Made by a program: the position numbers and the translations under genes
The notes under the pieces: generated by a model
The model's database searches: none
What the model was told of the DNA's origin: nothing
What the model saw: the letters and a program-made list of their open reading frames with translations, nothing else
DNA from: Geminicoccaceae bacterium
Lineage (GTDB): Bacteria; Pseudomonadota; Alphaproteobacteria; Geminicoccales; Geminicoccaceae
Direction: 5' to 3'
NCBI GenBank assembly: GCA_039808865.1
Contig: JBDHTW010000014.1
Span: forward strand, 12-64,011
Length of the DNA: 64,000 nucleotides
Part shown: positions 1 to 14,833 of the stretch, piece after piece
Position numbering within the stretch: position 1 is the first letter of the stretch
Layout of the letters: each line of letters begins with the position of its first letter

Positions 1-1
1 C

Positions 2-234: not shown

Positions 235-1149
235 ATGCTGATCGGGATCGATTGGGGTGGCACCAAGATCGAAGGCATCGCGCTCAGTCCCGCCGGGCAG
301 GAGCTGGCGCGGCTGCGTGAACCGACCCCGCGGCACGACTATCACCGCTGCATCGAGACGATCGTCGACATCGTCGCGCGGATCGAGCGGCAGACCGGGC
401 GATGCGGCAGCATCGGCATCGGCATACCCGGCTCGCTCGAGCCGCGCTCGCGGCTGGGGAAGGGCGCAAGTTCGACCTGGCTTCTGGGCAGGCCGGTCGA
501 GGACGATCTGCGCACGGCCCTGGGCCGCGCGATCCGGGTCGAGAACGATGCCGACTGCCTCGCTGCGTCCGAGGCGGTCGACGGTGCCGGAGCAGGGTTC
601 AACGTCGTGTTCGCGGTGATCCTCGGCAGTGGCGCCGGAGCCGGCATCGCCATCGGCGGCCGGGCGCATCATGGGCCGAACAACAGTGCCGGCGAATGGG
701 GCCACAACCCGTTGCCGTTCCCCGACGTCACCGAGCTTGCGGGCACCGCGTGCTATTGCGGCAAGCATGGCTGCATGGAGACCTGGGTCTCCGGGCGAGC
801 CTTCGAGGCCGCCTATGCCCGCCACACCCAGGAGAAGCTGCCGGCCAGGGAGATCATGCACAAGGTCGACGCCGGCGACCGACTGGCGGGCCTGATCTGG
901 GACCGCTACGTCGATCGCGTCGCCCGGGGCCTCTCCGTGGTCGTGAACACGCTCGATCCCGACATCCTGGTCATGGGCGGCGGGATGTCCAACGTCGACC
1001 GGCTCTATGCCGACCTGCCGGCGCGCTTGGCCCACTACACCTTCTCGACCGTGTTCGAGACACCGATCCGCAAGGCCGTGCATGGCGATTCGAGCGGGGT
1101 TCGCGGTGCGGCGTGGTTGTGGAAGAACGATGCCGGATGCTCTTCCTAG
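235..1149 (+). CDS. ROK family sugar kinase (fructokinase Mak/YajF-like)
   Basis: GIDWGGTK phosphate-1 motif, GIGIPG, ENDADC, EWGH and the Zn motif CYCGKHGCME. Confidence 0.9.
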   Translation: MLIGIDWGGTKIEGIALSPAGQELARLREPTPRHDYHRCIETIVDIVARIERQTGRCGSIGIGIPGSLEPRSRLGKGASSTWLLGRPVEDDLRTALGRAIRVENDADCLAASEAVDGAGAGFNVVFAVILGSGAGAGIAIGGRAHHGPNNSAGEWGHNPLPFPDVTELAGTACYCGKHGCMETWVSGRAFEAAYARHTQEKLPAREIMHKVDAGDRLAGLIWDRYVDRVARGLSVVVNTLDPDILVMGGGMSNVDRLYADLPARLAHYTFSTVFETPIRKAVHGDSSGVRGAAWLWKNDAGCSS

Positions 1150-1167
1150 CGCCGAGCCCTACAGGAG

Positions 1168-1962
1168 ATGACGATGGATGCCCCCGCCTTGCAGGAGCGG
1201 TTCGAGTTCGCTTCGGCGCTGATCGAGGAGGCCGGTGCGCTGGCGTTGGGCTACTTCCACCGCCTGGACACGCTGGAAATCAAGAGCAAGGGCATCCAGG
1301 ATGTGGCCAGCGAGGCGGATGTCGCCACGGAACTGCTGATCCGCGACCGGCTGCGGCAGCGCTTTCCCGAGGATGGCTTCCTCGGCGAGGAGACCGGCCG
1401 GGGCGAGGTCGAGGCGGCCGACGCCATCTGGGTCGTCGACCCCATCGACGGTACGCAGCCGTTCGTCAGCGGGATGAGCAGCTGGTGCATCTCGATCGCC
1501 CTGGTCGTCGATCATCAGCTGGAACTCGGCTTGGTCACGAGCCCGGCACGTGGCGAGCTGTTCGCCGGCCGACGCGGTGAAAGGGCCACCTTGAACGGCA
1601 GGCCGATCAGCGTGAGCGGCGCGACGCGGCTCGATCAGGGCATCGTCGCCGTCGGCTACTCGCCGCGCGTGCGCCCGGCGCAGTTCCTCCCGCTTTTCGG
1701 TCGCCTGCTCGACCAGGGCGCCATGTTCTATCGGGACGGTTCGGGGGCCCTGTCGCTGTGCTACGTCGCCTGCGGCCGCCTGATCGGCTATGTCGAGCCG
1801 CACATCAATTCCTGGGATTGCCTCGGCGCCATGGCGGTGATCGAGGCCGCGGGCGGCCGCTGCAGCGATTTCCTCGCCGCCGGCGGGCTGTGGAACGGCA
1901 ACCACCTGATCGCCGGGCCGACGGCGCTCTATCCCGCGCTCGAGGCGGCGTTCACGGGCTAG
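1168..1962 (+). CDS. Inositol monophosphatase family protein
   Basis: EADVATE, FLGEE, WVVDPIDGT and WDCLGA metal-binding motifs; AGGAG upstream (start may be ATG 1174). Confidence 0.9.
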   Translation: MTMDAPALQERFEFASALIEEAGALALGYFHRLDTLEIKSKGIQDVASEADVATELLIRDRLRQRFPEDGFLGEETGRGEVEAADAIWVVDPIDGTQPFVSGMSSWCISIALVVDHQLELGLVTSPARGELFAGRRGERATLNGRPISVSGATRLDQGIVAVGYSPRVRPAQFLPLFGRLLDQGAMFYRDGSGALSLCYVACGRLIGYVEPHINSWDCLGAMAVIEAAGGRCSDFLAAGGLWNGNHLIAGPTALYPALEAAFTG

Positions 1963-2333
1963 TCGCTGCAACCGCGCCCGGTGTGCGCAAGACGGGTACT
2001 GGGCCGGCGGCATGGGTTGCACCGCATCCACCGCCACAGGACTACGCTGTCCAAAAAGGGCATGCGCCAAGATCGGCTCGAATCGCGGTGCCGAGAGCCA
2101 TGCACGGCCGATTGGTGGCGTGCTGACTGCTTTTCCGTCCTACTTGGCATCGGCTCGGGCAGTCCGTGACAGATCTTGCCGGCATCATGCGGCACGGGAC
2201 CGGCGCTGTCGTTCTTTTCTGTCGGTCGATGGCGCCGATCGCTATGCTTATGGCGCTGCTGCTAAAGAAGGCAGATTCGACCCGTGCGATCGGTAGCTCC
2301 TTCGGACCCGGTCGAGATCGGACCCGGACGGAC

Positions 2334-2900
2334 ATGGCCGCGTCCGCAGGACGCGAATCGCAATATCCGGAGGCAAAGGACATCGCAAACGTGTCGACCG
2401 GGGGCAAACGGGCCATCCGCCAACAATATGCGGCGCTGCCGTTGACGGTCAGCGAAGATGGCGAGCGTCGGGTGCTCCTGATCACCTCGCGCGAGACCGG
2501 GCGTTGGATCATCCCCAAAGGCTGGGCCGAGAAGGGGGTGGAGCCGCACGTCCTGGCCGCCCGGGAAGCCTACGAGGAGGCCGGGCTCGAAGGCCAGATC
2601 GGCTCCGAGCCGATCGGCCGCTACCGCTACATGAAGTGGCTGCGCCGGAAGAAGCGGCCGAAATGGGTCTGGTGCGACGTCGCGGTCTTCGTGCTGCTGG
2701 TGCAGCGGCAGCTCGCCGACTGGCCGGAAAAGGGCCAGCGCGAGCGACGTTCCTTCGGCATGGCCGAGGCGGCTCGCGTTGCCGACGATGGTGGCTTGGC
2801 CCTGCTGCTGTCGGAGCTGGAGCCGCTGGCCGCATGGACGCGCACCAAGCCGGTCAACGAGTCGAGCGGCACCGTCCTGCCAACGTACGGTCCGACATGA
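2334..2900 (+). CDS. NUDIX hydrolase (DIPP/Aps1-like alphaproteobacterial type)
   Basis: QQYAALP...LLITSRETGRWIIPKGW...AAREAYEEAGL Nudix box; WPEKGQRERR. Start uncertain (ATG 2334 or GTG 2391 with a GGA-rich SD). Confidence 0.85.
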   Translation: MAASAGRESQYPEAKDIANVSTGGKRAIRQQYAALPLTVSEDGERRVLLITSRETGRWIIPKGWAEKGVEPHVLAAREAYEEAGLEGQIGSEPIGRYRYMKWLRRKKRPKWVWCDVAVFVLLVQRQLADWPEKGQRERRSFGMAEAARVADDGGLALLLSELEPLAAWTRTKPVNESSGTVLPTYGPT

Positions 2901-3331
2901 CCGCACGGTTATCGTCATGAGCGAAGTTCTCATTTCCGGCATGCGCATGGATCAGCGATACTCTGCTGGTCGGTGACGCCGACGACGCTGGGAGGGAGAG
3001 CAAGCAAATGACCGTCGAGCATATTGGCAGTTCTTGCCATTGCGCTACCGGAGATGACTTGGCGACTTCGCTCCGCCTTCCGGTGATTTTCTTGCAGCGC
3101 ACCAAAATCTTCCGTCCGCATCCTTATCGCCGTCCTTAGCCGCGACCGTCGCCCAGCCTGTTCGCCAGGCGGATCGATGGGCTTTCGGGCTCGGATGCCG
3201 CGCGGTCGCGGTGCGATCGGCGCATCCTGCGCTCTCGCTAGGCATCGAGACCGTCCCGATCCCCGTGCCGCCCGCCGCAAGGTCGGGCTCAGGCCAAGTC
3301 GAACTTCAACCTTGCATAGGCAGACGAGCTC

Positions 3332-5101
3332 ATGTCGCTTGCGGGCAAAGAAAGCGTGGTCGATCTGGTCGTCGTGGGCGCGGGCGGTGCCGGCATGGCC
3401 GCCGCGCTGTTCGCGGCGATCGCCGGCCTCGACGTGCTTCTGCTCGAGCGGACCGAGTTCGTCGGCGGCACCACGGCATTTTCGGGCGGCACCGCCTGGG
3501 TCCCCAACACGCATCTCGCGGCCACGGTCGGCAGCGAGGACAGCCGTGCGAACGCCGCGGCATTCTTGAGCCGCGCCGTCGGCCAGTACGGGAGCGAGGA
3601 GCTGCACCACAGCTTTCTCGAGAACGGTCCTGCGGCCATCGCCACCCTGGCGCAGCATTCCGAGGTCAAGTTCCGCGCCTACCCGCTCCATCCCGACTAC
3701 ATGTCCGAGCTCGACGGCTCGACGCTGTGCGGGCGGGCCCTCGAGCCCCTGCCGTTCGACGGCCGGCGGCTGGGCGACGGGTTCACGCTGATCCGGCCAC
3801 CGATCCCCGAGTTCACCGCACTCGGCGGGATGATGGTCGACCGTACCGACATCAAGCATCTGCTCAATTTCACCAGATCCTGGGCGTCGTTCTACCACGC
3901 CATGGGCCTGCTCGGCCGCCACGCCAAGGACCGGCTGCGCCATGCGCGCGGCACGCGGCTGGTGATGGGCAACGCTCTGGTCGCACGGCTGCTCTGCTCG
4001 CTGCGGCAACGTCGCGTGCCGGTCTGGCTGCGCGCCGAGGTCCACGAGCTGCTGCTGCAGGACGGCCGCGTCGACGGCGTGCGCGTGCAGCATGACGGCG
4101 GCACCCACCGCATCCGGGCGCGCCACGGCGTGATCCTGGCGTCGGGTGGCTTCAACCGTCACCCGCGCCTGCGCCAGGAGCTGCTGCCCTCCGCGCCGAC
4201 CCACACGCCAGGCGCGCCGGGGCACACCGGGGCAGCGATCGAGCTGGCGTTGCGCGCGGGCGCCCGCCTGGGCAACCGCAACCTCACGAACGCCTTCTGG
4301 GCGCCGGTCTCGGTCCGGCAGCGCCCGGACGGCAGCACGGCGGTATTCCCGCATTTCATCCTGGATCGCGCGAAGCCGGGCACGGTCATCGTCGATCACG
4401 CCGGCCGGCGGTTCGTCAACGAGTCGACCTCCTACCATCTGATCGGCCGCGCCATGCTGGAGGCGCACGAGCGGGCACCGACGGTGCCGGCCTACCTGAT
4501 CGCCGACGCGCGCGCGCTCAAGGCCTACGGTCTCGGCATGGTGCGTCCCGGCGGGCGCGGACTGAAGCCGCTGCTCGCGGACGGCTACCTGGTCCGCGCG
4601 CCGACGCTCGCCGAGCTGGCGCGCAAGCTCGAGATCGACGCCGCCGGCCTCACGGCCACGGTGACGCGGATGAACGAGTTCGCCCGCACCGGCCTCGATC
4701 TCGACTTCCACCGCGGCACCACCGCCTACGAGCGCAATCTCGGCGACCCGGCAGCCGCGCCGAATCCGACCATGGGCCCGATCGCGCAGGCGCCGTTCTA
4801 CGCGATCCGGCTCTACCCCGGCGACATCGGCGCCAGCGCCGGCCTCGTGACCGACGCCCAGGCCCGGGTGCTGACAGCCGGCGACCGGCCGCTCGACGGT
4901 CTCTACGCCGTCGGCAACGACATGAACTCGATCATGGGCGGCACCTATCCGGGGCCCGGGATCACCATCGGACCGGGTCTGACCTTCGCCTTCATCGCGG
5001 TGCAGGACGCCGCACGCCGGGCCGCGGGTACCGCTGCCGACAACCGCCGAGCGTCGGTGCCGGCCGGCCCGAGCAGCGTCAGGGAGAGGCAGCATGCTTG
5101 A
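3332..5101 (+). CDS. FAD-dependent oxidoreductase, 3-ketosteroid-delta1-dehydrogenase (KstD)-like, paralogue 1
   Basis: GAGGAG FAD motif, GGTTAFSGG, PDY, RFVNES.SY, GLYAVGND, GGTYPGPGITIGP. Confidence 0.85.
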   Translation: MSLAGKESVVDLVVVGAGGAGMAAALFAAIAGLDVLLLERTEFVGGTTAFSGGTAWVPNTHLAATVGSEDSRANAAAFLSRAVGQYGSEELHHSFLENGPAAIATLAQHSEVKFRAYPLHPDYMSELDGSTLCGRALEPLPFDGRRLGDGFTLIRPPIPEFTALGGMMVDRTDIKHLLNFTRSWASFYHAMGLLGRHAKDRLRHARGTRLVMGNALVARLLCSLRQRRVPVWLRAEVHELLLQDGRVDGVRVQHDGGTHRIRARHGVILASGGFNRHPRLRQELLPSAPTHTPGAPGHTGAAIELALRAGARLGNRNLTNAFWAPVSVRQRPDGSTAVFPHFILDRAKPGTVIVDHAGRRFVNESTSYHLIGRAMLEAHERAPTVPAYLIADARALKAYGLGMVRPGGRGLKPLLADGYLVRAPTLAELARKLEIDAAGLTATVTRMNEFARTGLDLDFHRGTTAYERNLGDPAAAPNPTMGPIAQAPFYAIRLYPGDIGASAGLVTDAQARVLTAGDRPLDGLYAVGNDMNSIMGGTYPGPGITIGPGLTFAFIAVQDAARRAAGTAADNRRASVPAGPSSVRERQHA

Positions 5102-5894
5102 GAACCTGAGCGGCGCGACCCGCGTCTATTTCATCATCGGCCACCCGATCGCCCAGGTGAAATCGCCGAACGGCGTGACCCGCACCTTCGAGGCCAGGGG
5201 GCGCGACGCCATCCTGGTGCCGGTCCACGTGCTGCCCGAGGATGTCGGCACCTTCATCGACGCCGTCGCGCGCACCCGCAACGTCGACGGCCTGATCGTC
5301 ACCGTGCCGCACAAGTTCGCCGCCCAGCGTCATTGCGCGACGCTGTCGGAGCGGGCGCAGCTGCTCACCTCGGTGAACGTGCTGCGCCGCAACGCCGACC
5401 AGAGCTGGCACGGGGACATGGTCGACGGCGCCGCCTTCGTCGGCGGCCTCCGCAATGCCGGATGCGCGCCCGCCGGCAAGCGCGCCCTTCTGGTCGGCGC
5501 CGGCGGCGCCGGCAGCGCCATCGGCCTCGAGCTGCTCGATGCCGGCGTCAGCCGGCTGGCGGTGCACGACGGGGACGTCCAGCGCCGGGACGCGCTGATC
5601 GCGCGCCTGGAGCAGCGCCATCCGGGCAAGGCGACGGCCGGCTCGGCCGACCCGACCGGCCACGACGTCATCGCCAATGCCACCCCGGCCGGCATGCGGG
5701 CCGACGATGCGCTGCCGGTCGACGTGACCAAGCTTCGCCCGACCATGTTCGTCGGCGACGTCGTAACCGTCCCGGAAGTCACGCCACTGCTGGCGGCGGC
5801 CCGCGACCTCGGCTGCCGGACGTCGACCGGCGTCGACATGTTCAAGGTCGTCAACGGTCTGATGGTCGATTTCTTCATGCCGTCGTCGAGCTGA
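5094..5894 (+). CDS. Shikimate dehydrogenase family protein (RifI-like), paralogue 1
   Basis: IIGHPIAQVKSP, VTVPHK, SVNVL, GDMVDG, GAGGAG, NATPAG; overlaps the upstream stop. Confidence 0.85.
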   Translation: MLENLSGATRVYFIIGHPIAQVKSPNGVTRTFEARGRDAILVPVHVLPEDVGTFIDAVARTRNVDGLIVTVPHKFAAQRHCATLSERAQLLTSVNVLRRNADQSWHGDMVDGAAFVGGLRNAGCAPAGKRALLVGAGGAGSAIGLELLDAGVSRLAVHDGDVQRRDALIARLEQRHPGKATAGSADPTGHDVIANATPAGMRADDALPVDVTKLRPTMFVGDVVTVPEVTPLLAAARDLGCRTSTGVDMFKVVNGLMVDFFMPSSS

Positions 5895-5959
5895 TTGCCG
5901 GACGACGGCGGGCGATCCGTCATTTCCTCGCATCAACCGGACAACAAGGGAGAACGTCC

Positions 5960-6979
5960 ATGCGCAGATTCGCTCTCAAGCTGCTCGCTACCGCCGCCGT
6001 GCTGGCCGTGGCGCTGCCATGCGCCGTCGGGCAGGCGGCCGACATCCAGGAGCGCACGCTGCGCCTCTCGGTCGCCGGCAACAAGGGCAACCCGCAGGTC
6101 GACGGCGCGGAGAAGCTGGCGGCGCTGGTCAAGGAGAAGAGCGGCGGCCTGATCACGATCAAGCTGTTTCCCGGCGGTGTCCTGGGGCCGGACCTGCAGA
6201 ACTACTCGGCCATGCAGGGCGGCACGCTCGACATGAACATCAGCAACGCCAGCTACCTCGCTGGCAACGTCAAGGAGTTCGCGGTCCTCGACTTTCCGTT
6301 TCTGTTCAACAATGTCGAGGAGGCCGATGCCATCGTCGACGGCCCGGTCGGCAAGAAGCTGTTCGACAAGCTGCAGGAGCGTGGCCTGGTCGGGCTGGCC
6401 TACACCGAACTCGGGTTTCGGCAGCTCAACAACAAGGAACGCCCGATCAACACGGCGGCGGATCTCGAGGGGCTGAAGATGCGCGTCATCCCGACGCCGC
6501 TCTACATCGAGTACATGAACGCGATCGGCGCCAATGCGGTGCCCATGCCCTACACCGAGACCTACACGGCGCTCGAGACCGGCGCCATCGATGGCATGAC
6601 CAATACTTTGCTCAACATGATCGACATGAAATTCTATGAGGTCGCACAATACCTCACCATCGACAATCACATGTACAATCCTCAGGCGATCCTGATCAGC
6701 AAGATCACCTGGGACAAGCTGTCGGACGACGAGAAGAAGATCCTGCAGGAGTCGGCGACGGAAGCCGCTCTCTATCAGCGGCAGGTCAATCGCACCGCCG
6801 GCGCCAAGGCGCTCGAGCGGCTGAAGGACGAGGGCATGGAAATCAACGAGCTGCCGGCGGAGGAGATCGCCAAGCTCAAGGCCAAGGCGCAGCCGGTGAT
6901 CGACAAGTACACCGCCGATGTCGGCCCGGAGCTCGTGGCCGAGCTCGATGCCGAGCTCGAGAAGCTTCGCAAGAACTAG
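5960..6979 (+). CDS. dctP: TRAP transporter substrate-binding protein (DctP family)
   Basis: Signal peptide, LFPGGVLG, LDFPFLF, LGFRQL, conserved carboxylate-binding Arg in GLKMRV, ALETGAIDG; SD AAGGGAG before ATG 5960. Confidence 0.9.
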   Translation: MRRFALKLLATAAVLAVALPCAVGQAADIQERTLRLSVAGNKGNPQVDGAEKLAALVKEKSGGLITIKLFPGGVLGPDLQNYSAMQGGTLDMNISNASYLAGNVKEFAVLDFPFLFNNVEEADAIVDGPVGKKLFDKLQERGLVGLAYTELGFRQLNNKERPINTAADLEGLKMRVIPTPLYIEYMNAIGANAVPMPYTETYTALETGAIDGMTNTLLNMIDMKFYEVAQYLTIDNHMYNPQAILISKITWDKLSDDEKKILQESATEAALYQRQVNRTAGAKALERLKDEGMEINELPAEEIAKLKAKAQPVIDKYTADVGPELVAELDAELEKLRKN

Positions 6980-6989
6980 CGTCGCGTGA

Positions 6990-7016
6990 CCGGGGCGGCG
7001 ACATCCGCCGCCCCGG
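6990..7016 (+). terminator. Perfect 11-bp GC hairpin after dctP with no U-tract (mRNA-stabilising or attenuating element)
   Basis: CCGGGGCGGCG-ACATC-CGCCGCCCCGG read directly from sequence. Confidence 0.6.
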
Positions 7017-7043
7017 CGCCGCCGTCGACCAGAAGGAAGTCCG

Positions 7044-8780
7044 ATGTCGACCACTACCCCCCAGGAGGCCACGACGTGCGATCTCCTGGTGATCGGCTCA
7101 GGCGCAGGTGGCCTGTCCGCCGCCGTGACGGCCGCGTGGCACGGCCTCAAGGTGATCGTGGCCGAGAAGGAGCCGGTGTTCGGCGGGACCACGGCCTGGT
7201 CCGGCGGCTGGATGTGGATTCCGGGCAACCCGCTGGCCAAGCGCGCCGGCATCGACGAGGATCCGGCGGCATTCCGGACCTACCTGCAGCACGAGCTGGG
7301 CAACCACTACGACGAGGCCATCATCGAGGCCTATCTGCGGACCGGGCCGGAGATGGTCACGTTCTTCGAGGAACATACCGCGGTTCGTTTCATCGACGGC
7401 AACCGCGTGCCGGACTTCCACGGCCGTACCCCGGCCGCCGGCACGGGCGGCCGCTCGGTCTGCGCCGCCCCCTATGATGGCAGGCAGCTAGGATCGCTGC
7501 TCGGCCGGCTGCGGCCACCGCTGACCGAGATCACCTTCATGGGCATGGGCATCGCCGCCGGGGCCGATCTCGGCCATTTTCTCAACGTCACCCGCTCGCT
7601 GCCGTCCGCGCTGCACGTGGCGCGCCGGTTCGGCAAGCACCTGATCGATCTCGCCCTGCATCGCCGCGGCATGCAGCTCGTCAACGGCAATGCGCTGGTG
7701 GCACGGCTGCTCAAGTCGGCGGCGGATCTCGGCGTCCAGCTCTGGGAAGCGGCGCCGGCCCAGCGCCTGCTCATCGAGAACGGCGCGGTGCGGGGCGCGG
7801 TCCTGGCGACGGCGGCGGGCGAGCGTACCGTGCACGCACGCCATGGCACCTTGCTGGCCTGCGGCGGCTTTCCGCACGACGCGGCGCGCCAACAGCGCCT
7901 GTTCCCGCATGCCGCCATGGGCCAGCGCCATTGGTCGGCGGCGCCACGCACCAACACCGGCGACGGCCTGCGTCTGGGCGAGACCGCCGGGGGCCACGTC
8001 GACGAGGCGCTGGCGGCCCCGGCCGCCTGGGCACCGGTCTCGCTCGTGCCCCGGGGCGACGGGACCTTCGGCCATTTTCCGCATCTGATCGAGCGGGCGA
8101 AGCCGGGGCTGATCGCCGTCAGGGCCGACGGGCGACGGTTCGCCAACGAGGCGGATTCCTACCACGACGTCATGGGGGCGCTGCTCGCCGCGACCGGGCC
8201 GGGCGAAGAGGTGGCCGCGTGGCTCGTCTGCGATCATCGCTTCCAGCGCCGCTATGGCCTGGGCTTCGCGAAGCCGGCGCCGCTGCCGCTCTTGCCCTAT
8301 CTGCGCTCGGGCTATCTCAAGCGCGGCGCCACGTTGGGCGAGCTTGCCCGCGCCTGCGGCATCGATGCGGCCGGCCTGGAGCAGACGGTGGCGACGTTCA
8401 ACCGTGATGCCGAGCGTGGCGAGGACCCGGCTTTCGGACGTGGATCGACGGCCTACAACCGCATCCAGGGCGATGCCGGCCATGGCCCCAACCCGTGCGT
8501 GGCGCCGATCGCGCAGGGGCCGTTCTACGCCGTGAAGATCGTGCCGGGCAGCCTCGGCACCTTCGCCGGGCTGCGCACCGACGCGTTCGCGCGCGTGCTC
8601 GGCCAGGACGGCCAGCCAATCCCGGGCCTCTATGCCGGCGGCAACGACATGGCGGCCGTGCTGGGCGGCACCTATCCGGCCGGCGGCATCACGCTCGGCC
8701 CGGCCATGACCTTCGGCTACATCGCGGCCCGCCATGCGGCGGGCCTCGCCGACCGCACCCATGCCGCCGCTGCGGCCTAG
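7044..8780 (+). CDS. FAD-dependent oxidoreductase, KstD-like, paralogue 2
   Basis: GSGAGG, GGTTAWSGG, RFANEADSY, GLYAGGND, GGTYPAGGITLGP. Confidence 0.85.
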   Translation: MSTTTPQEATTCDLLVIGSGAGGLSAAVTAAWHGLKVIVAEKEPVFGGTTAWSGGWMWIPGNPLAKRAGIDEDPAAFRTYLQHELGNHYDEAIIEAYLRTGPEMVTFFEEHTAVRFIDGNRVPDFHGRTPAAGTGGRSVCAAPYDGRQLGSLLGRLRPPLTEITFMGMGIAAGADLGHFLNVTRSLPSALHVARRFGKHLIDLALHRRGMQLVNGNALVARLLKSAADLGVQLWEAAPAQRLLIENGAVRGAVLATAAGERTVHARHGTLLACGGFPHDAARQQRLFPHAAMGQRHWSAAPRTNTGDGLRLGETAGGHVDEALAAPAAWAPVSLVPRGDGTFGHFPHLIERAKPGLIAVRADGRRFANEADSYHDVMGALLAATGPGEEVAAWLVCDHRFQRRYGLGFAKPAPLPLLPYLRSGYLKRGATLGELARACGIDAAGLEQTVATFNRDAERGEDPAFGRGSTAYNRIQGDAGHGPNPCVAPIAQGPFYAVKIVPGSLGTFAGLRTDAFARVLGQDGQPIPGLYAGGNDMAAVLGGTYPAGGITLGPAMTFGYIAARHAAGLADRTHAAAAA

Positions 8781-8798
8781 CACAAGGTGGACTTGCAG

Positions 8799-9410
8799 AT
8801 GCGCTATGAACTCGCGACCCTGGCCGTGAAGATGGGCTCGACCGCCAGCGTGGCGCAGGGCGTCGAGGCCTTCACGACCGCGGCCGAGGCCAAGGGCAAG
8901 CTTCTCGGCTGCTGGTTCTCGGACATCGGCGCGCTCAACCAGGTGGCGGTGCTGCGCGGCTTCGCCGACGAAGCTGAGCTCGCCGCCGAGCGCTGGCGGA
9001 CCCAGACCAGCGGCAACCCGTTCGGCTGCGCCGACATGCTGAACCAGATGACGCTGGAGAGCTACGCACCGTTTCCCGACCTGCCGCCGGTGCAGCCGGG
9101 CGCGTTCGGGCCCGTCTACGAGATCCGCTCCTACATCCTGAAGACCGGTGGCCTTCTGCCGACCTTCGAGGGCTGGGCGGAGAAGCTGCCGGCACGCACC
9201 GCGGTCTCGAAGCTGGTGGTCGCGATGTACGGCTTGGACGGGGCGCCGCGGATCACGCACATCTGGCCCTATGCCAGCATCGACGAGCGCTCGGCGCTGC
9301 GCGCGAAGTCGGTCGAGGTCGGCGCCTGGCCGCCGAAGAGTGCCGTATGGCTCACCCCCACCATGCAGTCGACGATCTACCTGCCGACCGCGATCTCGCC
9401 CCTGAAGTAG
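8799..9410 (+). CDS. NIPSNAP family protein (two-domain)
   Basis: Two repeats: YEL...GCWFSDIGALNQV and YEIRSY...ITHIWPY...R...R...WPP. Confidence 0.85.
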   Translation: MRYELATLAVKMGSTASVAQGVEAFTTAAEAKGKLLGCWFSDIGALNQVAVLRGFADEAELAAERWRTQTSGNPFGCADMLNQMTLESYAPFPDLPPVQPGAFGPVYEIRSYILKTGGLLPTFEGWAEKLPARTAVSKLVVAMYGLDGAPRITHIWPYASIDERSALRAKSVEVGAWPPKSAVWLTPTMQSTIYLPTAISPLK

Positions 9411-9419
9411 GCGATACCG

Positions 9420-10244
9420 ATGCCGATCGCGTTCTCGCTCGCCCATCTGACCGTCTTGGGCCTGCCACCGCCCGAGATGATCCATGTAGCCGCCCGCACC
9501 GGCTACCGGCATGTCGGCCTCCGTCTGATCGCGGTCACGGCCGACAGCCCGGGCTACCCGCTGATGTCCGACCAGCCGATGCTGCGCGCGACCCGCGCAG
9601 CGATGGCCGACACGGGTATCGGCGTGCTCGACATCGAGTTCGTCAAGATCACGCCGGAACTCGACGTCGCGGCGCTCGAGCCGTTCGTCGCGGCCGGCGC
9701 CGAGCTCGGCGCACGGCACATCATCACTGCACCCTACGATCCCGATCTCGGCCGGCTGGCCGCGCGCCTCGCCGCAATCGGTGAGCTCGGTGCCCGCTAC
9801 GGGCTCGGCGCCGTGCTGGAGTTCTTCCCGTGGACGGTGGTACCCGACCTGGGCACGGCGGTGCAGGTCGTCGAGGCGACGGGGCGCGCCGATGTCGGCG
9901 TGCTGGTCGACACGCTGCATTTCGACCGCTCGGGCAGCACGCTGGCCCAGCTGCGCGCTGTTCCAGCTTCCCGGCTGCCGCTGCTCCACGCCTGCGATGC
10001 GCCAGCGGCGCGGCCGACGACCACCGAGGGCCTGCTGCATCAGGCGCGCGCCGAGCGGCTCCCACCCGGCGAGGGCGGGATCGACATCCGCAGCGTGTTC
10101 GCCACCATGCCGGCGGGTATCCCGGTCGCCGTGGAGGTGCCGATGGAGCGGCTGACGCGCGCGATCGGGCCGGAAGCCGTGGCGCTGCGGGCACGCGAAG
10201 CCGCAGCAGGTCTGCTCGAGCCGGATGGCCGGCTCGACGATTGA
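9420..10244 (+). CDS. Xylose isomerase-like TIM barrel (AP_endonuc_2) metalloenzyme, possible dehydratase or isomerase
   Basis: LEFFPW, VDTLHF, HACD, RLPPGEG and VEVP metal-ligand pattern. Confidence 0.8.
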   Translation: MPIAFSLAHLTVLGLPPPEMIHVAARTGYRHVGLRLIAVTADSPGYPLMSDQPMLRATRAAMADTGIGVLDIEFVKITPELDVAALEPFVAAGAELGARHIITAPYDPDLGRLAARLAAIGELGARYGLGAVLEFFPWTVVPDLGTAVQVVEATGRADVGVLVDTLHFDRSGSTLAQLRAVPASRLPLLHACDAPAARPTTTEGLLHQARAERLPPGEGGIDIRSVFATMPAGIPVAVEVPMERLTRAIGPEAVALRAREAAAGLLEPDGRLDD

Positions 10245-10266
10245 TGAACCGACAGGAGAGGCAAGG

Positions 10267-11100
10267 ATGATCAGTGGCAAGACGACGCTCATCGCCCATC
10301 TCGGCTACCCGACCGAGGCGTTCAAGGCGCCGATGATCTACAATCCGTATTTCGAGGATGCGGGCATCGACGCGGTGGTCGTGCCGATGGGCGTCAAGCC
10401 CGAGGACTACGCGCAGTTCGTGCCGATGCTGTTCCGGCTCAGCAACATCCGGGGCGCGCTCGTGACCATGCCGCACAAGGTGACGACCGTGGGCCTCGTC
10501 GACGAGGTGACGCCGACGGCCAAGATCGCCGGCGCCTGCAACGCGATCCTGCTGCGCCCCGACGGCACGCTCCTGGGCGACATGTTCGACGGTGCGGGCT
10601 TCGTCCGCGGCGTCGAGCGCAAGGGGCGCATGGTGCGTGGCGCGCGTGCGCTGGTGGTCGGCAGCGGCGGCGTCGGCTCCGCGATCGCGGCCTCGCTGGT
10701 GGCCGCTGGCCTCGCCGGGATCGGTCTGTTCGATTTCAATGCCGAAGCAGCGGTGGCGCTCGGCCAGCGCCTGCGCGAGCACTATCCCGACCTCGAGGTC
10801 ACGACCGGCGCGAAGGACCCGGCCGGCTACGACATCGTCGTCAATGCCACACCGCTCGGCATGAAGGACGGCGATCCCCTGCCGGTCGACGTGGAGCGCA
10901 TCACTCCTGCGACCTTCGTCGGCGAGGTGGTGATGAAGCAGGAGATGACGCCCTTCCTGCGCGCAGCCCAGGCCAAGGGCTGCCCGTTCCAGATCGGCAC
11001 CGACATGCTGTTCGAGCAGATCCCGGCCTATCTCGAGTTCTTCGGCTTCCCGACGACGACGGCCGACAATCTCCGTGCCCTGGCCAAGATCCAGTACTGA
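10267..11100 (+). CDS. Shikimate dehydrogenase family protein, paralogue 2
   Basis: VTMPHK, GACNAI, GDMFDG, GSGGVG, NATPLG; ATG 10267 after AGGA. Confidence 0.85.
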
Positions 11101-11140
11101 GCCGTCGCGCGACGATCCGACCTACGCAAGAGGGCCCAGC

Positions 11141-11590
11141 ATGAGCCGCCTCGTCTATTTCCTGAACGGTCCCAACCTGAACCTGCTCGGCAAGCGCCAG
11201 CCGCACATCTACGGCCACGAGACGCTGGCCGACGTCGAGGCCGGCTGCCGCAAGCTCGCGGACGAGCTGAAGCTCGAGCTGCGCTTCCACCAGAGCAACC
11301 GCGAGTACGAGATCATCGACTGGATCCATGAATCGCGCGAGATCGCCGGCGGACTTGCGATCAACCCCGGCGCGTTCACGCACACGTCCGTGGCGATCCT
11401 GGACGCGCTCAACGCGTGCGACTTCCCGGTGCTCGAGGTGCACATCTCGAACGTCCACAAGCGCGAGAGCTTCCGTCACCATTCCTACGTCTCGCTGCGC
11501 GCCGACGGCGTCATCGCCGGCTTCGGCACGCAGGGCTACGAGCTGGCGCTGCGCCGGCTGGCACGGCTGATCGATACCAAGGCGGGCTGA
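11141..11590 (+). CDS. aroQ: Type II 3-dehydroquinate dehydratase
   Basis: [48 protein letters not shown]. Confidence 0.95.
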
Positions 11591-12639
11591 TGACGACGGG
11601 CGCGGGCGGGCCGGTCGGGCTCGCGGTGATGGGCGCCGGGCTGATCGGCCGGCGACACATCGAGCACGTGCTGGCCCGGCCCGAAGCGCAGCTCGCCGCG
11701 ATCGTCGATCCGACGCCGGCGGCCAAGTCGCTGGCCGAGGAGAAGGGGGTCCCCTGGTTTCCGGACCTCCCGGCCATGCTCGCGACGGCAAGGCCCGAGG
11801 GCGTGCTGGTGGCGACGCCCAACCAGCTGCACGTGGCGAACGGCCTCGAGTGCGTCGCCGCCGGGATACCGGTCCTGATCGAGAAGCCGCTGGCCGACGA
11901 CGTCGATGCGGCAGCCGGCCTCGTGGCGGCGGCCGAGGCCGCGGGCGTGCCGCTGCTCACCGGACATCACCGGCGCCACAACCCGTTGATGCGCGAGGCC
12001 AAGGCCGCGATCGACGCCGGCAAGCTCGGCCGGCTCGTCGCCGTCCAGGGCACGTGCTGGTTCTACAAGCCCGACGACTATTTTGCGGTCGAGTGGCGGC
12101 GCCGCAAGGGTGCCGGCCCGGTCTTCGTGAACCTGATCCACGATGTCGACAACCTGCGCTACCTGTGCGGCGACGTCGTCGCGGTGCAGGCCATGGAGAC
12201 CAACGCGCTGCGCGGCAACGAGGTCGAGGACGCGGCGGTCATCCTGCTCCGCTTCGAGAGCGGCGTGCTCGCCACGGTCAGCGTCGCCGACAAGATCGTC
12301 GCTCCGTGGAGCTGGGAGCTGACCAGCGGCGAGAACCCGGCCTACCCGCAGACGGCGGAGAGCTGCTACTGCATCGGCGGCACGCGCGGCTCGCTGACGA
12401 TCCCCTATCTCGACCTGTGGCACAACCCGACCGAGCCGAGCTGGTGGGAGCCGATCGCGCGCGAGCGGCTGCCGATCACGCTCGACGATCCGCTCGGGCT
12501 GCAGGTTCGGCAGTTCTGCCGGGTGATCCGTGGCATCGAGCCGCCGCTGGTCTCCGGGCGCGAGGGACTGGAGACGCTGAAGGTGATCGTGGCGGTCAAG
12601 CAGGCAGCCGCCACGGGCCGCCTCGTGACGCTCGGCTGA
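11590..12639 (+). CDS. Gfo/Idh/MocA family NAD(P)-dependent oxidoreductase
   Basis: GAGLIG, ATPN..H, IEKP, NLIHDVD; TGATG coupling to aroQ. Confidence 0.9.
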   Translation: MTTGAGGPVGLAVMGAGLIGRRHIEHVLARPEAQLAAIVDPTPAAKSLAEEKGVPWFPDLPAMLATARPEGVLVATPNQLHVANGLECVAAGIPVLIEKPLADDVDAAAGLVAAAEAAGVPLLTGHHRRHNPLMREAKAAIDAGKLGRLVAVQGTCWFYKPDDYFAVEWRRRKGAGPVFVNLIHDVDNLRYLCGDVVAVQAMETNALRGNEVEDAAVILLRFESGVLATVSVADKIVAPWSWELTSGENPAYPQTAESCYCIGGTRGSLTIPYLDLWHNPTEPSWWEPIARERLPITLDDPLGLQVRQFCRVIRGIEPPLVSGREGLETLKVIVAVKQAAATGRLVTLG

Positions 12640-12651
12640 GGCGGACGCCGG

Positions 12652-13410
12652 TCAGCCGCGGCCGATATACGGCATCTTGGTCGCCATGACCGTCATGAAC
12701 TGGACGTTGGCGTCGAGCGGCAGGCTCGCCATGTAGACCACGGCGCTGGCGACATGGGCCACGTCCATGCGTGGCTCGGGCGCCAGGCGCCCGTCGGCCT
12801 GCGGCACGCCCTCGGTCATGCGCTGCGTCATGTCGGTGGCGGCGTTGCCGATGTCGATCTGGCCGACGGCGATGTCGTGCTGGCGGCCGTCCAGCGAACA
12901 GGAGCGCGTGAGACCGGTGATCGCGTGCTTGGTCGCCGTGTAGGGTGCCGAGTTCGGCCGCGGCACGTGGGCGGAGATCGAGCCGTTGTTGACGATCCGG
13001 CCGCCTTTGGGACTCTGGCTCTTCATGAGCCGGAACGCCGCCTGGCTGCACAGGAAGGCACCGGTCAGGTTGACGTCGAGCACGCCCTGCCACTGCTCGT
13101 AGGTCAGCTCCTCGAACGGGATCGGCGGCGCCCCGGTGCCGGCATTGTTGAACAAAAGATCGAGCCGCCCGAACGTCTCGCGCACCAGATCGAAAGCCTG
13201 GCCCACGTCGACCGGGTTGCCGATGTCGGCGGGCACCGCCAGCATCCGCGCGCGCGCATCGCCGCTCAGCGCCACCGTCGCCTCGAGCTGTTCCCGTCGC
13301 CGCCCGATCACGGCCACGGACCAGCCGGCCTCGACCAGCGCCAAGGCCGCGGCCCGGCCGATGCCGCTCCCGGCCCCGGTCACGACGGCGATCCGACTTG
13401 CCTGCGTCAT
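12652..13410 (-). CDS. Short-chain dehydrogenase/reductase (SDR)
   Basis: [22 protein letters not shown]; SD GAGGA before ATG 13410. Confidence 0.9.
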
Positions 13411-13574
13411 GTTTGTCCTCCCCTTGGTCTTGGTCCAACATGCACCGCCCCCGCCAATCGCGGAAGTGCGGCTCGCCACGACCGGTGCTCCGTGCTAACG
13501 CGCGCCGCAGGTCCCATGGCCTGGGCTCGGCCACGTCCGGTCGGCCCGCGCCGAACCGGAGGGACATTGCATCG

Positions 13575-14819
13575 ATGCTGCTTTCTCGCCTGCTGCGCCC
13601 ATTGATCCGCTTCGGCCGGCTCACGGTGATCGATGCCGATGACCGCCCGCACGTCTTCGGCTCCGAGATGTCACCCGCGGTCACGGTGCGCCTGCACGAC
13701 CGCCGCCTGCATTGGCGCCTCGCGCTGAACCCCGGCCTCCATGCCGGCGAAGCCTACATGGACGGCACGCTCACGGTCGAGGACGCCCCGCTTTACGCGT
13801 TCATCGAGCTGTTCGCGCGCAATCTCGGCCATGCCGGCGCCATCGACCTCAGCGGCCCGTTCGACCTCGTGAACCGGGCGGCACGCCGGCTGCAGCAGTT
13901 CAACCCGGCCGCCCGCGCCCGGCGCAACGTCGCCCACCACTACGATCTCTCGGCCGAACTCTACGACCTGTTCCTCGACAGGGATCGGCAATATTCGTGC
14001 GCCTACTTCACCGACCCCGGCGAGGATCTGGAGAGCGCGCAGCTCCGCAAGAAGCAGCACATCGCGGCCAAGCTCCTGATCGAGCCCGGTATGCGCGTGC
14101 TCGACATCGGCTGCGGCTGGGGCGGGCTCGGGCTCTACCTGGCCCAGGCGCTGGGGGCCGACGTCACGGGAATCACGCTCTCGACCGAGCAGCTCGCCGT
14201 CGCCAACGAGCGCGCCAAGGCGGCCGGGCTGGCCGACAAGGCCCAGTTCCACCTGCGCGACTACCGGCACGAGACCGGCAGCTTCGACCGCATCGTCTCC
14301 GTCGGCATGTTCGAGCATGTCGGCATCAACCACTATGGCGAGTTCTTCCGCACGCTGCGCGACCGGCTGAGCGACGACGGCGTGGCCCTGCTGCACACCA
14401 TCGGCCGGCGCGCCGGGCCGGGCAGCACCAACCCGTGGCTGCAGAAGTACATCTTCCCGGGTGGCTACTCCCCGTCTTTGTCCGAGATCGGCAGCGCGGT
14501 CGAGCGGTCGGGCCTGTGGATCAACGATGTCGAGGTGCTGCGGCTGCACTACGCGGAGACCCTCCGCCATTGGCGGCTGCGCTTCGAGGCCAACCGGTCG
14601 AAGATCGCGGCACTCTACGACGAGCGGTTCTGCCGCATGTGGGAGTTCTATCTCGCCACCAGCGAGGTCTCCTTCCGCCACCTCGATTCGGTCGTGTTCC
14701 AGGTCCAGCTCGCCAGGCGCCGCGATGCCGTGCCGCAGACGCGCGACTATCAGTTCGCCGCCGAGAGGCACCTGATCGACGCCGGCCCCGGCAACACCCG
14801 GCCGCGTCTCGTCGGCTGA
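13575..14819 (+). CDS. cfa: Cyclopropane-fatty-acyl-phospholipid synthase family methyltransferase
   Basis: NVAHHYDLS, QYSCAYF, LDIGCGWG, SVGMFEHVG, YIFPGG, HYAETL, MWEFYL. Confidence 0.92.
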   Translation: MLLSRLLRPLIRFGRLTVIDADDRPHVFGSEMSPAVTVRLHDRRLHWRLALNPGLHAGEAYMDGTLTVEDAPLYAFIELFARNLGHAGAIDLSGPFDLVNRAARRLQQFNPAARARRNVAHHYDLSAELYDLFLDRDRQYSCAYFTDPGEDLESAQLRKKQHIAAKLLIEPGMRVLDIGCGWGGLGLYLAQALGADVTGITLSTEQLAVANERAKAAGLADKAQFHLRDYRHETGSFDRIVSVGMFEHVGINHYGEFFRTLRDRLSDDGVALLHTIGRRAGPGSTNPWLQKYIFPGGYSPSLSEIGSAVERSGLWINDVEVLRLHYAETLRHWRLRFEANRSKIAALYDERFCRMWEFYLATSEVSFRHLDSVVFQVQLARRRDAVPQTRDYQFAAERHLIDAGPGNTRPRLVG

Positions 14820-14833
14820 GGGCCGCAGCGGCC

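Follow-up and report, generated by a model that had tools for sequence, protein, structure and literature searches.

What do two KstD-like flavoproteins do in one operon with a 3-dehydroquinate dehydratase? The question is raised by a locus in the 64-kb stretch of DNA analysed here in full (the window). The host is an alphaproteobacterium that is related to Geminicoccaceae and occurs in sludge-type metagenomes. The operon spans positions 3332–12639 and contains nine genes on the forward strand. Family assignments were made with Pfam and NCBIfam. In order, the genes encode the KstD-like flavoprotein FAD1 (FAD_binding_2; 3332–5101), the RifI2-type SDH1 (Shikimate_dh_N; 5094–5894), the TRAP-type periplasmic solute-binding protein DctP (5960–6979), the second KstD-like flavoprotein FAD2 (FAD_binding_2; 7044–8780), a two-domain NIPSNAP protein (8799–9410), a xylose-isomerase-like TIM barrel (PF01261; 9420–10244), SDH2 (Shikimate_dh_N, of the catabolic quinate/shikimate-dehydrogenase type by neighbourhood; 10267–11100), the type II 3-dehydroquinate dehydratase AroQ (DHquinase_II; 11141–11590), and the Gfo/Idh/MocA NAD(P) oxidoreductase GFO (11590–12639). 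The intergenic gaps are −8, 65, 64, 18, 9, 22, 40, and −1 bp, with an 8-nt overlap of FAD1 and SDH1 and the GFO start overlapping the AroQ stop. A convergent SDR gene follows (12652–13410, reverse strand; adh_short, E = 2e-50).

All ten genes are present at the predicted coordinates, and the ORF list matches gene calls made independently for identical contigs from metagenomes. GC3 is 0.86–0.94 across all genes, including DctP. Expression is represented by a few short metatranscriptome contigs, in which DNA carry-over is possible. The 431-bp non-coding region 5' of FAD1 (2901–3331) contains no ORF with coding-type GC3 and presumably holds the promoter and operator of the operon; a search of it for the sigma-70 consensus gave no match.

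The original prediction treated these genes as a single homogeneous pathway cluster that included the SDR. The nine co-oriented, tightly spaced genes, the convergent SDR, and the named families are confirmed; however, the operon combines two modules, each conserved on its own. FAD1, SDH1, FAD2, NIPSNAP, and the TIM barrel form a conserved block, module F. Neighbourhood analysis, proposed together with the prediction, revealed FAD2–NIPSNAP–TIM with FAD1 and SDH1 in roughly 30 alpha-, beta-, and gammaproteobacterial genomes. When 47 module-F loci, the window included, were clustered, the NIPSNAP family was found in 35, the FAD pair in 32, TIM in 26, SDH in 24, an IclR regulator in 19, and GFO in 14; FAD2 lies directly upstream of NIPSNAP in 29 of 45 anchored loci. 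The SDH2–AroQ–GFO block, module Q, recurs in dozens more genomes, and because both blocks recur, the gene arrangement exceeds chance. The two modules abut, with module F next to SDH2/AroQ, in the window and four other loci (at least five genomes). Some loci of either module have an SDR gene nearby, but there is no consistent ortholog (best matches 30–41% identical, 3 of 80 loci); the SDR of the window is not conserved as a partner, and it is doubtful whether it belongs to the system.

Module Q is the classical quinate/shikimate entry module, probably with DctP included. SDH2 has relatives in at least 577 genomes. In the loci of the best 80, which are 68–79% identical, protein clustering places AroQ in 35, a QuiC1-type dehydratase in 30, PcaHG in 22, and GFO in 22, with PcaB also among the neighbours; by tblastn, AroQ is found in 46 and GFO in 25 of the 80. 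The AroQ of the window scores 186.3 bits against TIGR01088 (cut-off 169.85) and is up to 84% identical to SDH2-adjacent AroQ proteins of other genomes. GFO is 55–70% identical to its counterparts in AroQ–GFO–SDH2 loci versus 42–48% to those in module-F loci, and only 24–25% identical to genuine LigC. DctP (PF03480, E = 2.4e-90) has its closest PDB match in 4P47 (E = 5e-109), a ligand-free structure; its carboxylate triad is legible as Arg, Arg 21 residues on, and Asn 40 further (4P47 numbering). It is an orphan, with no DctQ or DctM in the whole 64 kb; in 15 of the 80 quinate-type loci, DctP relatives of 46–56% identity adjoin DctM and SDH2/AroQ. Module Q would oxidise quinate to 3-dehydroquinate and then dehydrate it to 3-dehydroshikimate. 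Thus, the prediction that all nine genes belong to a novel pathway fails for AroQ, SDH2, GFO, and probably DctP; the novel part is module F.

The flavoproteins of module F share 41% identity and pass NCBIfam models (FAD1: PRK12843, 877.6 bits, cut-off 758; FAD2: PRK06134, 933 bits, cut-off 747) whose curated label is merely "FAD-dependent oxidoreductase"; FAD1 matches FAD_binding_2 with E = 1.4e-93. The equivalents of KstD Y119, Y318, Y487, and G491 are kept in 22 of 22 aligned FAD1-type sequences, including the window copy. The FAD2 subfamily likewise conserves Y318, Y487, and G491, so that both flavoproteins carry the predicted KstD-type catalytic residues (Tyr/Tyr/Gly); at the Y119 position, however, most FAD2 orthologs have Phe then His, with no equivalent of this tyrosine. 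The nearest solved structures are AcmB and KstD1, AcmB (7P18) being the closest PDB match of FAD2 (E = 1.6e-88), and this favours true steroid or terpenoid ring desaturases in a partial system for degrading steroids or isoprenoids. Such an origin is scarcely credible: both proteins fall below every NCBIfam KstD cut-off, neither the window nor about 45 related loci contain other steroid-degradation genes, AroQ, SDH, and protocatechuate genes lie alongside, and the transporters of module-F loci (TRAP, TTT, MFS, or Liv-type ABC) are of kinds typical for organic acids. NCBIfam has equivalog models for the 4-oxocyclohexanecarboxylate desaturases ChcC1 and ChcC2; FAD2 scores 544 bits against the ChcC2 model, below the cut-off of 900 but above its score on any steroid KstD model.

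The nearest solved relative of both SDH1 (E = 1.1e-48) and SDH2 is RifI2 of Pseudomonas putida (4K28), and SDH1 lies under every NCBIfam AroE/YdiB cut-off. The 23 SDH1-type sequences compared, among them that of the window, retain the catalytic Lys/Asp, N86, T61, and S16 (Ala in one), whereas in nearly all S14 is replaced by V, N59 by I or V (Leu in one), and Q244 by hydrophobic V, L, or A (one has Gln, one is gapped). These substitutions are a weak sign of a less hydroxylated substrate, because SDH2, of quinate/shikimate type by context, likewise lacks both carboxylate-binding serines.

A profile of 23 TIM-barrel orthologs matches Lmo2234 (1.8e-22), the dehydratase domain of QuiC1 (5HMQ, 1.3e-14), IolI (2.8e-13), and AsbF (3.6e-3). 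The protein is thus distantly related to dehydroshikimate dehydratases and a candidate enzyme of this type; its E134, D164, and E239 (invariant) and Q190 (near-invariant) correspond to E134, D165, E239, and Q191 of QuiC1. The QuiC1-type dehydratase usual in module Q is absent from the 64-kb window, and the TIM barrel may double as the module Q dehydratase in this genome. Possibly, then, the cluster encodes a complete classical quinate route of SDH2, AroQ, and the dehydratase-like TIM barrel.

Could this route be all there is? SDH2 and/or SDH1 and GFO would oxidise quinate and shikimate, AroQ would dehydrate dehydroquinate, the TIM barrel would dehydrate dehydroshikimate, and the flavoproteins and NIPSNAP, for example as partners in electron transfer or redox balancing or as enzymes for another substrate class, would be co-located only for regulation. 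Besides the AroQ equivalog score, the qui/pca neighbourhood of SDH2, and the QuiC1 relationship, the homologous P. putida cluster speaks for it: quinate elicits the strongest response of its lig2 promoter, and the authors' scheme leads from shikimate/quinate through DHS to PCA without a role for the flavoproteins (2025 preprint). Nevertheless, we consider this reading unlikely. The constant partners of the TIM barrel over about 30 genomes are FAD1, FAD2, NIPSNAP, and SDH1, not AroQ, which is missing from most module-F loci; most module-Q loci have a QuiC1-type dehydratase and no flavoprotein; and a substrate-desaturating active site is conserved in both flavoprotein subfamilies. P. putida, moreover, already has a separate quinate pathway besides lig1/lig2.

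The predicted link to hydroaromatic and protocatechuate metabolism is borne out by the AroQ, QuiC1-type, and PcaHG neighbours of module Q and by the flanks of module F. In four Comamonadaceae-type loci, module F is flanked by protocatechuate 4,5-cleavage genes: LigA, LigB, a LigC-like Gfo-family protein, a LigI-like amidohydrolase, and a canonical AroE, not all in each. The class III extradiol dioxygenases there could also indicate gallate as the product, formed if the flavoproteins oxidise 3-dehydroshikimate (or 3-dehydroquinate) at C4–C5, with NIPSNAP as tautomerase and the module as a branch from quinate/shikimate to gallate; dehydroshikimate minus 2H would be gallate, and a KstD-type enzyme could take the alpha proton at C4 and the beta hydride at C5. 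We hold this to be distinctly improbable. The dioxygenase misses the gallate dioxygenase cut-off (301 versus 412 bits), while the adjacent LigA passes the protocatechuate 4,5-dioxygenase model TIGR02792 (235.7 bits, cut-off 108.6). The LigC-like and LigI-like neighbours (the former passing no NCBIfam model, the latter below cut-off) are needed for protocatechuate and not for gallate, and one desaturase would suffice, leaving SDH1 and the TIM barrel unexplained.

A role in cyclitol, keto-sugar, or sugar-acid catabolism, of inositol- or ketofructose-like kind, is very improbable, although several relationships point that way. GFO resembles inositol and anhydrofructose oxidoreductases, a 5-ketofructose reductase of the SDH family exists (7COK), the sugar-acid binder 7BBR is the second-best solved relative of DctP, and the IolI match would fit an IolI/IolE-type isomerase or dehydratase beside GFO and SDH-family sugar dehydrogenases or reductases. 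However, pathways for sugars or inositol are not known to involve KstD-type desaturases. Genes for a QuiC1-type dehydratase and pcaHG accompany AroQ and SDH2, and ligAB genes adjoin module F; in P. putida, IclR-type regulators and induction by quinate, PCA, and 4HBA are reported (2025 preprint).

Given the retained KstD residues, the dehydratase-like TIM barrel, and the linkage to protocatechuate genes and module Q, an aromatising function is the best reading of module F, and the two flavoproteins probably help convert plant-derived cyclohexane acids to aromatic acids. We put at about 50% the probability that the operon joins two hydroaromatic-acid catabolic modules, of which module F feeds related cyclohexane(ene)-carboxylates, more reduced or with fewer hydroxyls, into the funnel of quinate. 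We infer all reactions, substrates, and the step order from what is observed directly: the gene content, the two-module structure, the conserved catalytic residues, and the proximity of protocatechuate-cleavage genes in genomes. With NAD+ as acceptor, SDH1 would convert a hydroxyl of the ring into a ketone, FAD1 and FAD2 would introduce C=C bonds beside it, and the TIM barrel would eliminate the leftover hydroxyl as water in the manner of dehydroshikimate dehydratase, giving protocatechuate, or 4-hydroxybenzoate from monohydroxy substrates. NIPSNAP, with PF07978 in two stretches, a conserved Tyr–Glu pair at the start of each half (Y7–E8, Y111–E112), seven conserved Arg, and weak PDB matches exclusively to uncharacterised NIPSNAP proteins, might conceivably aid keto–enol or ketol isomerisation.

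Several facts weigh against the aromatising reading. With a dehydrogenase, a pair of desaturases, and a dehydratase, the set offers more oxidation and dehydration steps than the aromatisation of any single candidate substrate requires, so either several substrates are processed or some assignment is wrong. Peek et al. 2013 reportedly found weak shikimate and trace quinate activity in RifI2, which tells what this enzyme does not prefer rather than what it does. FAD2 lacks the Tyr119 equivalent, pobA adjoins module F in only one of about 47 loci, no regulator gene adjoins the operon, and the 64-kb window contains no dedicated regulator, ring-cleavage, or DctQM genes. The growth defects of P. putida ligR1 and ligR2 mutants on glucose (2025 preprint) are not predicted by a purely hydroaromatic pathway.

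The expected correspondence with the P. putida RifI2 locus is real: module F shares its gene set with the lig1/lig2 cluster of strain KT2440 (PP_2601–2609), which comprises rifI, two FAD oxidoreductases, NIPSNAP, a transporter, a sugar-phosphate-isomerase-like "DSD", a Gfo-family "LigC", and IclR regulators, published without enzymology (2025 preprint). The claim of an uncharacterised new route survives in part. The flavoproteins have no specific NCBI name, but the gene set is in print and the chemistry has a precedent: in Sinomonas, ChcC1 and ChcC2, two successive KstD-like desaturases, aromatise 4-oxocyclohexanecarboxylate (pathway summary: PMC9795900), and aromatisation of a cyclohexanone-carboxylate in this way, the role proposed here for FAD1 and FAD2, is thus established chemistry.

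All ten genes of the original prediction were found in the region; the gene map was drawn from the ORF listing, Pfam and NCBIfam scans, and gene predictions made independently on metagenome contigs of identical sequence. Nine of them lie on the forward strand: FAD1 (g1, 3332–5101; FAD_binding_2), SDH1 (g2, 5094–5894; Shikimate_dh_N), the TRAP binding protein DctP (g3, 5960–6979), FAD2 (g4, 7044–8780; FAD_binding_2), a NIPSNAP protein with two NIPSNAP domains (g5, 8799–9410), a xylose isomerase-like TIM barrel (g6, 9420–10244), SDH2 (g7, 10267–11100; Shikimate_dh_N), AroQ (g8, 11141–11590; DHquinase_II), and the Gfo/Idh/MocA protein GFO (g9, 11590–12639). The tenth gene, SDR (g10, 12652–13410; adh_short), is convergent and lies on the reverse strand. 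The gaps between the nine forward-strand genes range from −8 to 65 bp, their GC3 is uniform (0.86–0.94), and they form an operon-like unit.

The remaining genes of the window are unrelated (Suf, glycosyl-, sulfo-, and methyltransferases, and anthranilate synthase). The 64-kb window contains no genes for DctQ/DctM, IclR or AraC regulators, lig/pca proteins, a QuiC1-type dehydratase, or PobA, and hydroxylase and ring-cleavage genes are likewise absent from it. The operon has no dedicated regulator, although 19 related loci have an IclR gene; the nearest regulator is an unrelated LysR gene (17243–18142). The 431 bp upstream of FAD1 (2901–3331) contain no recognisable sigma-70 promoter, and promoter and terminator scans revealed nothing exceeding the shuffled expectation. 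The SufB protein of the window shares 92% identity with its counterparts in Benzoatithermus flavus and in a Geminicoccaceae MAG, and the window sequence occurs in metagenomes from sludge, activated sludge, bioreactors, soil, and indoor surfaces. In biofilm metatranscriptomes (window positions 1–16000, runs X25/X32), a few short exact contigs map to g1, g4, g6, g9, and the g8/g9 (AroQ/GFO) junction. They suggest low-level in situ transcription, though they may stem from DNA carry-over, and are too sparse to show co-induction. Elsewhere in the window (28462–38501), two GT4 glycosyltransferases, a C-methyltransferase, an NAD-dependent epimerase, and a sulfotransferase are grouped, possibly as a locus for a glycan modified by sulfation or methylation.

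With NIPSNAP as the anchor, 45 loci were collected from species-representative genomes, the window proteins were mapped to them, and all neighbours were clustered. In these loci, FAD2, NIPSNAP, and the TIM barrel are mostly contiguous, with FAD1 and SDH1 alongside; we refer to this block as module F. The full block is present in about 30 species-level genomes from three proteobacterial classes, and module F hosts include Acidocella, Marinobacterium, Limnohabitans, Sphaerotilus, Xanthobacter, Hydrogenophaga, and Stutzerimonas. AroQ is not a member of the conserved block. Neighbour clustering placed, besides the 19 IclR regulators, a Gfo/Idh/MocA gene in 14 module F loci. Module F is common; in a search with FAD2 limited to 8000 scored candidates, at least 7996 homologs had E ≤ 1e-30. 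An NAD-dependent epimerase/dehydratase (3-beta-HSD-like, ~300 aa) is a recurrent neighbour of module F (five loci), as is a second TIM-barrel paralog (four loci), all drawn from L012, L038, L048, L050, and L053; these are possible accessory steps that are not in the window. NIPSNAP proteins 43–57% identical to that of the window occur in other Alphaproteobacteria without flavoprotein, SDH, or TIM-barrel partners (L019, L023, L026, L034, and L040–L044), so the NIPSNAP family is not exclusive to this pathway. In two Chloroflexota loci (L046 and L047), a 30%-identical NIPSNAP lies within a different shared neighbourhood.

SDH2 has another set of companions. Its relatives are present in at least 577 genomes, and the best 80 of these (68–79% identity) were used for neighbourhood counts by protein clustering. 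AroQ adjoins SDH2 in 35 of the 80 loci (46 by tblastn). Other neighbours are a QuiC1-type dehydroshikimate dehydratase of 650 aa (30 loci), an MFS transporter (25), and a Gfo/Idh/MocA protein (22, or 25 by tblastn). PcaHG is encoded in 22 of the 80 loci and PcaB in 16, while 15 carry a DctP that is 46–56% identical to that of the window, mostly together with DctM. This neighbourhood is the classical quinate/shikimate-to-beta-ketoadipate cluster. The GFO of the window is 55–70% identical to the GFO proteins of quinate loci, compared with 42–48% for those of module F loci. Because GFO and its neighbours match classical quinate loci, SDH2, AroQ, and GFO, probably together with DctP, form a second module (module Q) that has been joined to module F. 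Four other loci (L050, L079, L107, and L129) show this fusion as well. The g6-type TIM barrel occurs in 4 quinate loci versus 23 with the QuiC1-type dehydratase, and one locus has both, numbers that are too small to indicate mutual exclusion. A Gfo/Idh/MocA gene is common in classical quinate clusters, often in the order AroQ–GFO–SDH2 (L059–L137, e.g., L075, L080, and L133; Rhizobium is one example); to our knowledge, the textbook quinate pathway assigns no role to such a protein.

FAD1 passes the PRK12843 model (877.6 bits) and FAD2 passes PRK06134 (933 bits) in the June 2026 release of NCBIfam, which names both families simply ‘FAD-dependent oxidoreductase’. FAD2 was aligned with KstD1 (4C3X) and AcmB (7P18), and 54 module F flavoproteins were aligned with each other. 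In the latter alignment, FAD1 and FAD2 represent two paralogous subfamilies with 41% identity. Tyr318, Tyr487, and Gly491 (KstD1 numbering) are kept in all FAD1 and FAD2 orthologs; the equivalent of Tyr119 is kept in FAD1, whereas most FAD2 orthologs have Phe-His there. In KstD1, Tyr318 is the catalytic base, Tyr119 is the partner of this base, and Tyr487 and Gly491 polarise the ketone. Neither protein reaches the NCBIfam cut-offs for 3-oxosteroid 1-dehydrogenase (512 and 471 bits at best versus 788–793). On the ChcC1 model (cut-off 1000), FAD1 and FAD2 each score about 327 bits, and on the ChcC2 model (cut-off 900), they score 426 and 544 bits, respectively; the latter value is higher than that of FAD2 on any steroid KstD model. 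Being below these equivalog cut-offs, FAD1 and FAD2 are not orthologs of ChcC1 and ChcC2. The flavoproteins of the window are credible ring desaturases.

The best solved relative of SDH1 is RifI2 (4K28, E = 1.1e-48), and both proteins have the AQVKSP and VTVPxK motifs. AQVKSP stands in place of the canonical HSxSP, and this signature is kept in 23 orthologs. Residue numbers for SDH1 are those of E. coli AroE, mapped by motif. In nearly all 23 SDH1-type sequences, the Lys/Asp dyad, N86, T61, and S16 are retained, while S14 is replaced by Val, N59 by Ile or Val, and Q244 by Val or Leu. SDH2 has Phe and Ala at the two serine positions. Given that SDH2 sits in classical quinate clusters, the serine substitutions alone are no evidence for a deoxy substrate. 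SDH2 scores below all NCBIfam AroE/YdiB cut-offs, yet in many genomes its orthologs adjoin AroQ, the QuiC1-type dehydratase, and pcaHG. AroQ is a type II 3-dehydroquinate dehydratase by TIGR01088 (186.3 bits versus a cut-off of 169.85). An identification of GFO as LigC was rejected, as the protein is 24–25% identical to the LigC encoded beside LigAB and matches no LigC-specific model. The label ‘LigC’ given to PP_2602, the Gfo/Idh/MocA gene of the Pseudomonas putida lig2 cluster, in a recent preprint (bioRxiv 10.1101/2025.08.13.670189) also looks unsafe, the corresponding family here showing the same 24–25% identity to LigC beside LigAB.

The window encodes no 3-dehydroshikimate dehydratase that belongs to a recognised type (QuiC1/QsuB, AsbF, or QuiC), and the sole candidate is the distant TIM barrel g6. 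A search with its single sequence gave no match to QuiC1 or AsbF. A profile of 23 orthologs matched Lmo2234 (1.8e-22), the dehydratase domain of QuiC1 (1.3e-14), IolI (2.8e-13), and AsbF (3.6e-3). E134, D164, and E239 are invariant in these orthologs and Q190 is nearly so; they align with E134, D165, Q191, and E239 of QuiC1. The aligned E-D-Q-E residues are presumably metal ligands, with Gln, not His, being typical of dehydratases. Thus, the TIM barrel is related to QuiC1 (5HMQ), AsbF (3DX5), and Lmo2234 (2G0W) at the profile level and has the E-D-Q-E positions in common with them; however, it is distant from dehydroshikimate dehydratases, IolI scores about equally, and the HPPD-like C-terminal domain is absent. 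By its gene number, lmo2234 would adjoin lmo2233 (quiR2), where the qui2 protocatechuate operon of Listeria begins. As for NIPSNAP, all its structural relatives are uncharacterised; many Arg, Tyr, and Glu residues are conserved.

DctP has the Arg/Arg/Asn carboxylate triad, as read off its sequence with 4P47 numbering; its nearest solved relative, 4P47, is ligand-free and so uninformative on the ligand. With no DctQ/DctM homologs in the 64-kb window, DctP is an orphan there, whereas its 46–56% identical relatives elsewhere adjoin DctM. Either its membrane partner is encoded elsewhere or DctP has a non-transport role. Horizontal acquisition of DctP, considered because the region has a GC content of 63%, was rejected, as its GC3 of 0.90 is like that of its neighbours. 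A scan for close relatives of DctP gave only four loci, none linked to the cluster. Module F loci swap transporter types (TRAP, TTT, MFS, and Liv-type ABC), and this interchangeability fits an organic-acid substrate.

Several module F loci also encode enzymes of aromatic acid degradation. In four Comamonadaceae-type loci (L021, L022, L027, and L037), module F is flanked by lig-type genes, not every gene being present in each. The neighbouring LigA passes TIGR02792 (235.7 bits versus 108.6), and LigB, the class III extradiol beta subunit, scores 575.6 bits versus a cut-off of 317. A LigC-like Gfo-family gene that passes no NCBIfam model, a LigI-like amidohydrolase, and a canonical AroE passing PRK00258.1-2 are also found beside module F. 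An intradiol dioxygenase is encoded near module F in L050. The pobA gene, tested as a sign of a 4-hydroxybenzoate product, adjoins module F in L006 only. Directly downstream of the module F TIM barrel, L020, L021, L022, and L037 carry genes for a family I CoA-transferase and an acyl-CoA dehydrogenase, the latter reaching 233 bits on the model for cyclohexane-1-carbonyl-CoA dehydrogenase, which is below the cut-off. These neighbours hint that some hosts have a CoA-dependent side branch for alicyclic acids.

The following mechanism can be proposed. In module Q, SDH2 would oxidise quinate to 3-dehydroquinate, AroQ would convert it to 3-dehydroshikimate, and GFO may oxidise shikimate or an epimer. 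The substrates of module F would most plausibly be ring acids without the hydroxyl leaving groups required by the two classical dehydrations. SDH1 would form the ring ketone, and a KstD-type desaturase would add a conjugated double bond, for example, converting 3-oxo-4,5-dihydroxycyclohexanecarboxylate to 3-dehydroshikimate. Either the second desaturase or the TIM barrel, which is dehydratase-like, would then finish aromatisation, with protocatechuate as the product or, for a 4-hydroxy acid, 4-hydroxybenzoate. We infer every reaction of this scheme, the Sinomonas chc pathway being the precedent. We put at about one in three the probability that SDH1–FAD1–FAD2–NIPSNAP–TIM barrel is a widespread, unrecognised proteobacterial route in which compounds that arise when shikimate and quinate are reduced to a saturated ring (dihydroshikimate, 3,4-dihydroxy- or 4-hydroxycyclohexanecarboxylate) are aromatised through flavin-dependent desaturation, yielding protocatechuate or 4-hydroxybenzoate. 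Counting against the mechanism are the excess of enzymes over what any one substrate needs, the lack of Tyr119 in FAD2, and the growth defects of P. putida regulator mutants on glucose (bioRxiv 10.1101/2025.08.13.670189). Further weak points are the absence of hydroxylase, regulator, DctQM, and ring-cleavage genes from the window and RNA evidence that consists of short metatranscriptome contigs. The hydroaromatic catabolic operon with ring-desaturating flavoproteins that was originally predicted thus holds as regards the operon and the credible desaturases, but part of it, SDH2–AroQ–GFO, is the ordinary quinate pathway. The chemistry has a known precedent in ChcC1/ChcC2 of Sinomonas.

Plant litter, rhizospheres, and wastewater contain large carbon pools of quinate, shikimate, and the compounds to which microbes reduce them. 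Should saturated ring acids indeed be aromatised by the flavoproteins, this would be a second, dehydratase-independent entry to the protocatechuate funnel; it would explain thousands of ‘FAD-dependent oxidoreductase / 3-ketosteroid dehydrogenase-like’ annotations and provide new biocatalysts with which alicyclic feedstocks, naphthenic-acid-type pollutants among them, could be turned into aromatic acids. The structure of RifI2 has reportedly been available for more than a decade with no function assigned. If the proposed route is true, RifI2-class SDH homologs and bacterial NIPSNAP proteins would gain a biochemical function. The composite operon sets module F in line with identifiable quinate genes and therefore narrows the substrate search.

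A literature search on PP_2602–2608, lmo2234, and KstD together with quinate found only the 2025 preprint. According to it (bioRxiv 10.1101/2025.08.13.670189), the lig1 cluster of P. putida KT2440 contains rifI (PP_2608, RifI2), two FAD oxidoreductases, NIPSNAP, and the MFS transporter PP_2604, and lig2 contains a sugar-phosphate isomerase or ‘putative DSD’ (PP_2603) and ‘LigC’ (PP_2602). The two clusters (PP_2601–PP_2609) come with the IclR regulators LigR1 and LigR2, of which LigR1 binds 4-hydroxybenzoate; RifI is called functionally uncharacterized, and the flavoproteins are given no role. The suggested comparison with the RifI2 locus showed a likeness: lig1/lig2 has the gene set of module F, with two FAD oxidoreductases beside a RifI2-type SDH, NIPSNAP, a sugar-phosphate-isomerase-like TIM barrel, Gfo/Idh/MocA, and a transporter, in addition to the match of SDH1 with 4K28. 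For PP_2603–PP_2607, this likeness follows the description in the preprint, RifI2 being the one protein compared by sequence; it is a likeness of gene sets and no claim of the same function. The cluster was rightly called uncharacterised in that no function has been explained, but its core gene set had already been described. The window differs from P. putida in having a TRAP binding protein instead of an MFS transporter, in lacking IclR regulators, and in its extra SDH2–AroQ–GFO quinate module, which is explicitly absent from the P. putida cluster; its GFO is nearer to the quinate-module type than to the module F type.

When compared with classical quinate clusters of rhizobia and Betaproteobacteria, the window has orthologs of SDH2 (68–79% identity), AroQ (up to 84%), GFO (up to 70%), and DctP (46–56%), but it lacks the QuiC1-type fused dehydratase and pca genes and has module F genes intercalated in the operon instead. 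In Sinomonas cyclohexanicum, the chc pathway (ChcB, ChcC1, and ChcC2) aromatises cyclohexanecarboxylate to 4-hydroxybenzoate (PMC9795900). The logic is alike: a dehydrogenase produces a ring ketone, and then two successive KstD-family flavoprotein desaturases aromatise it. In the window, however, the dehydrogenase has the SDH fold rather than being an SDR, the P450 hydroxylase is absent, the dehydratase-like TIM barrel, NIPSNAP, and Gfo protein are extra, and the host is proteobacterial, not actinobacterial. FAD1 and FAD2 score under the KstD equivalog cut-offs, and FAD2 has Phe-His instead of Tyr119; nevertheless, they have the fold, the FAD-binding motif, and the catalytic Tyr/Tyr/Gly in common with KstD1 (4C3X), AcmB (7P18), and cyclohexanone dehydrogenase (8AM3), and their genomic context is that of hydroaromatic acids rather than steroids.
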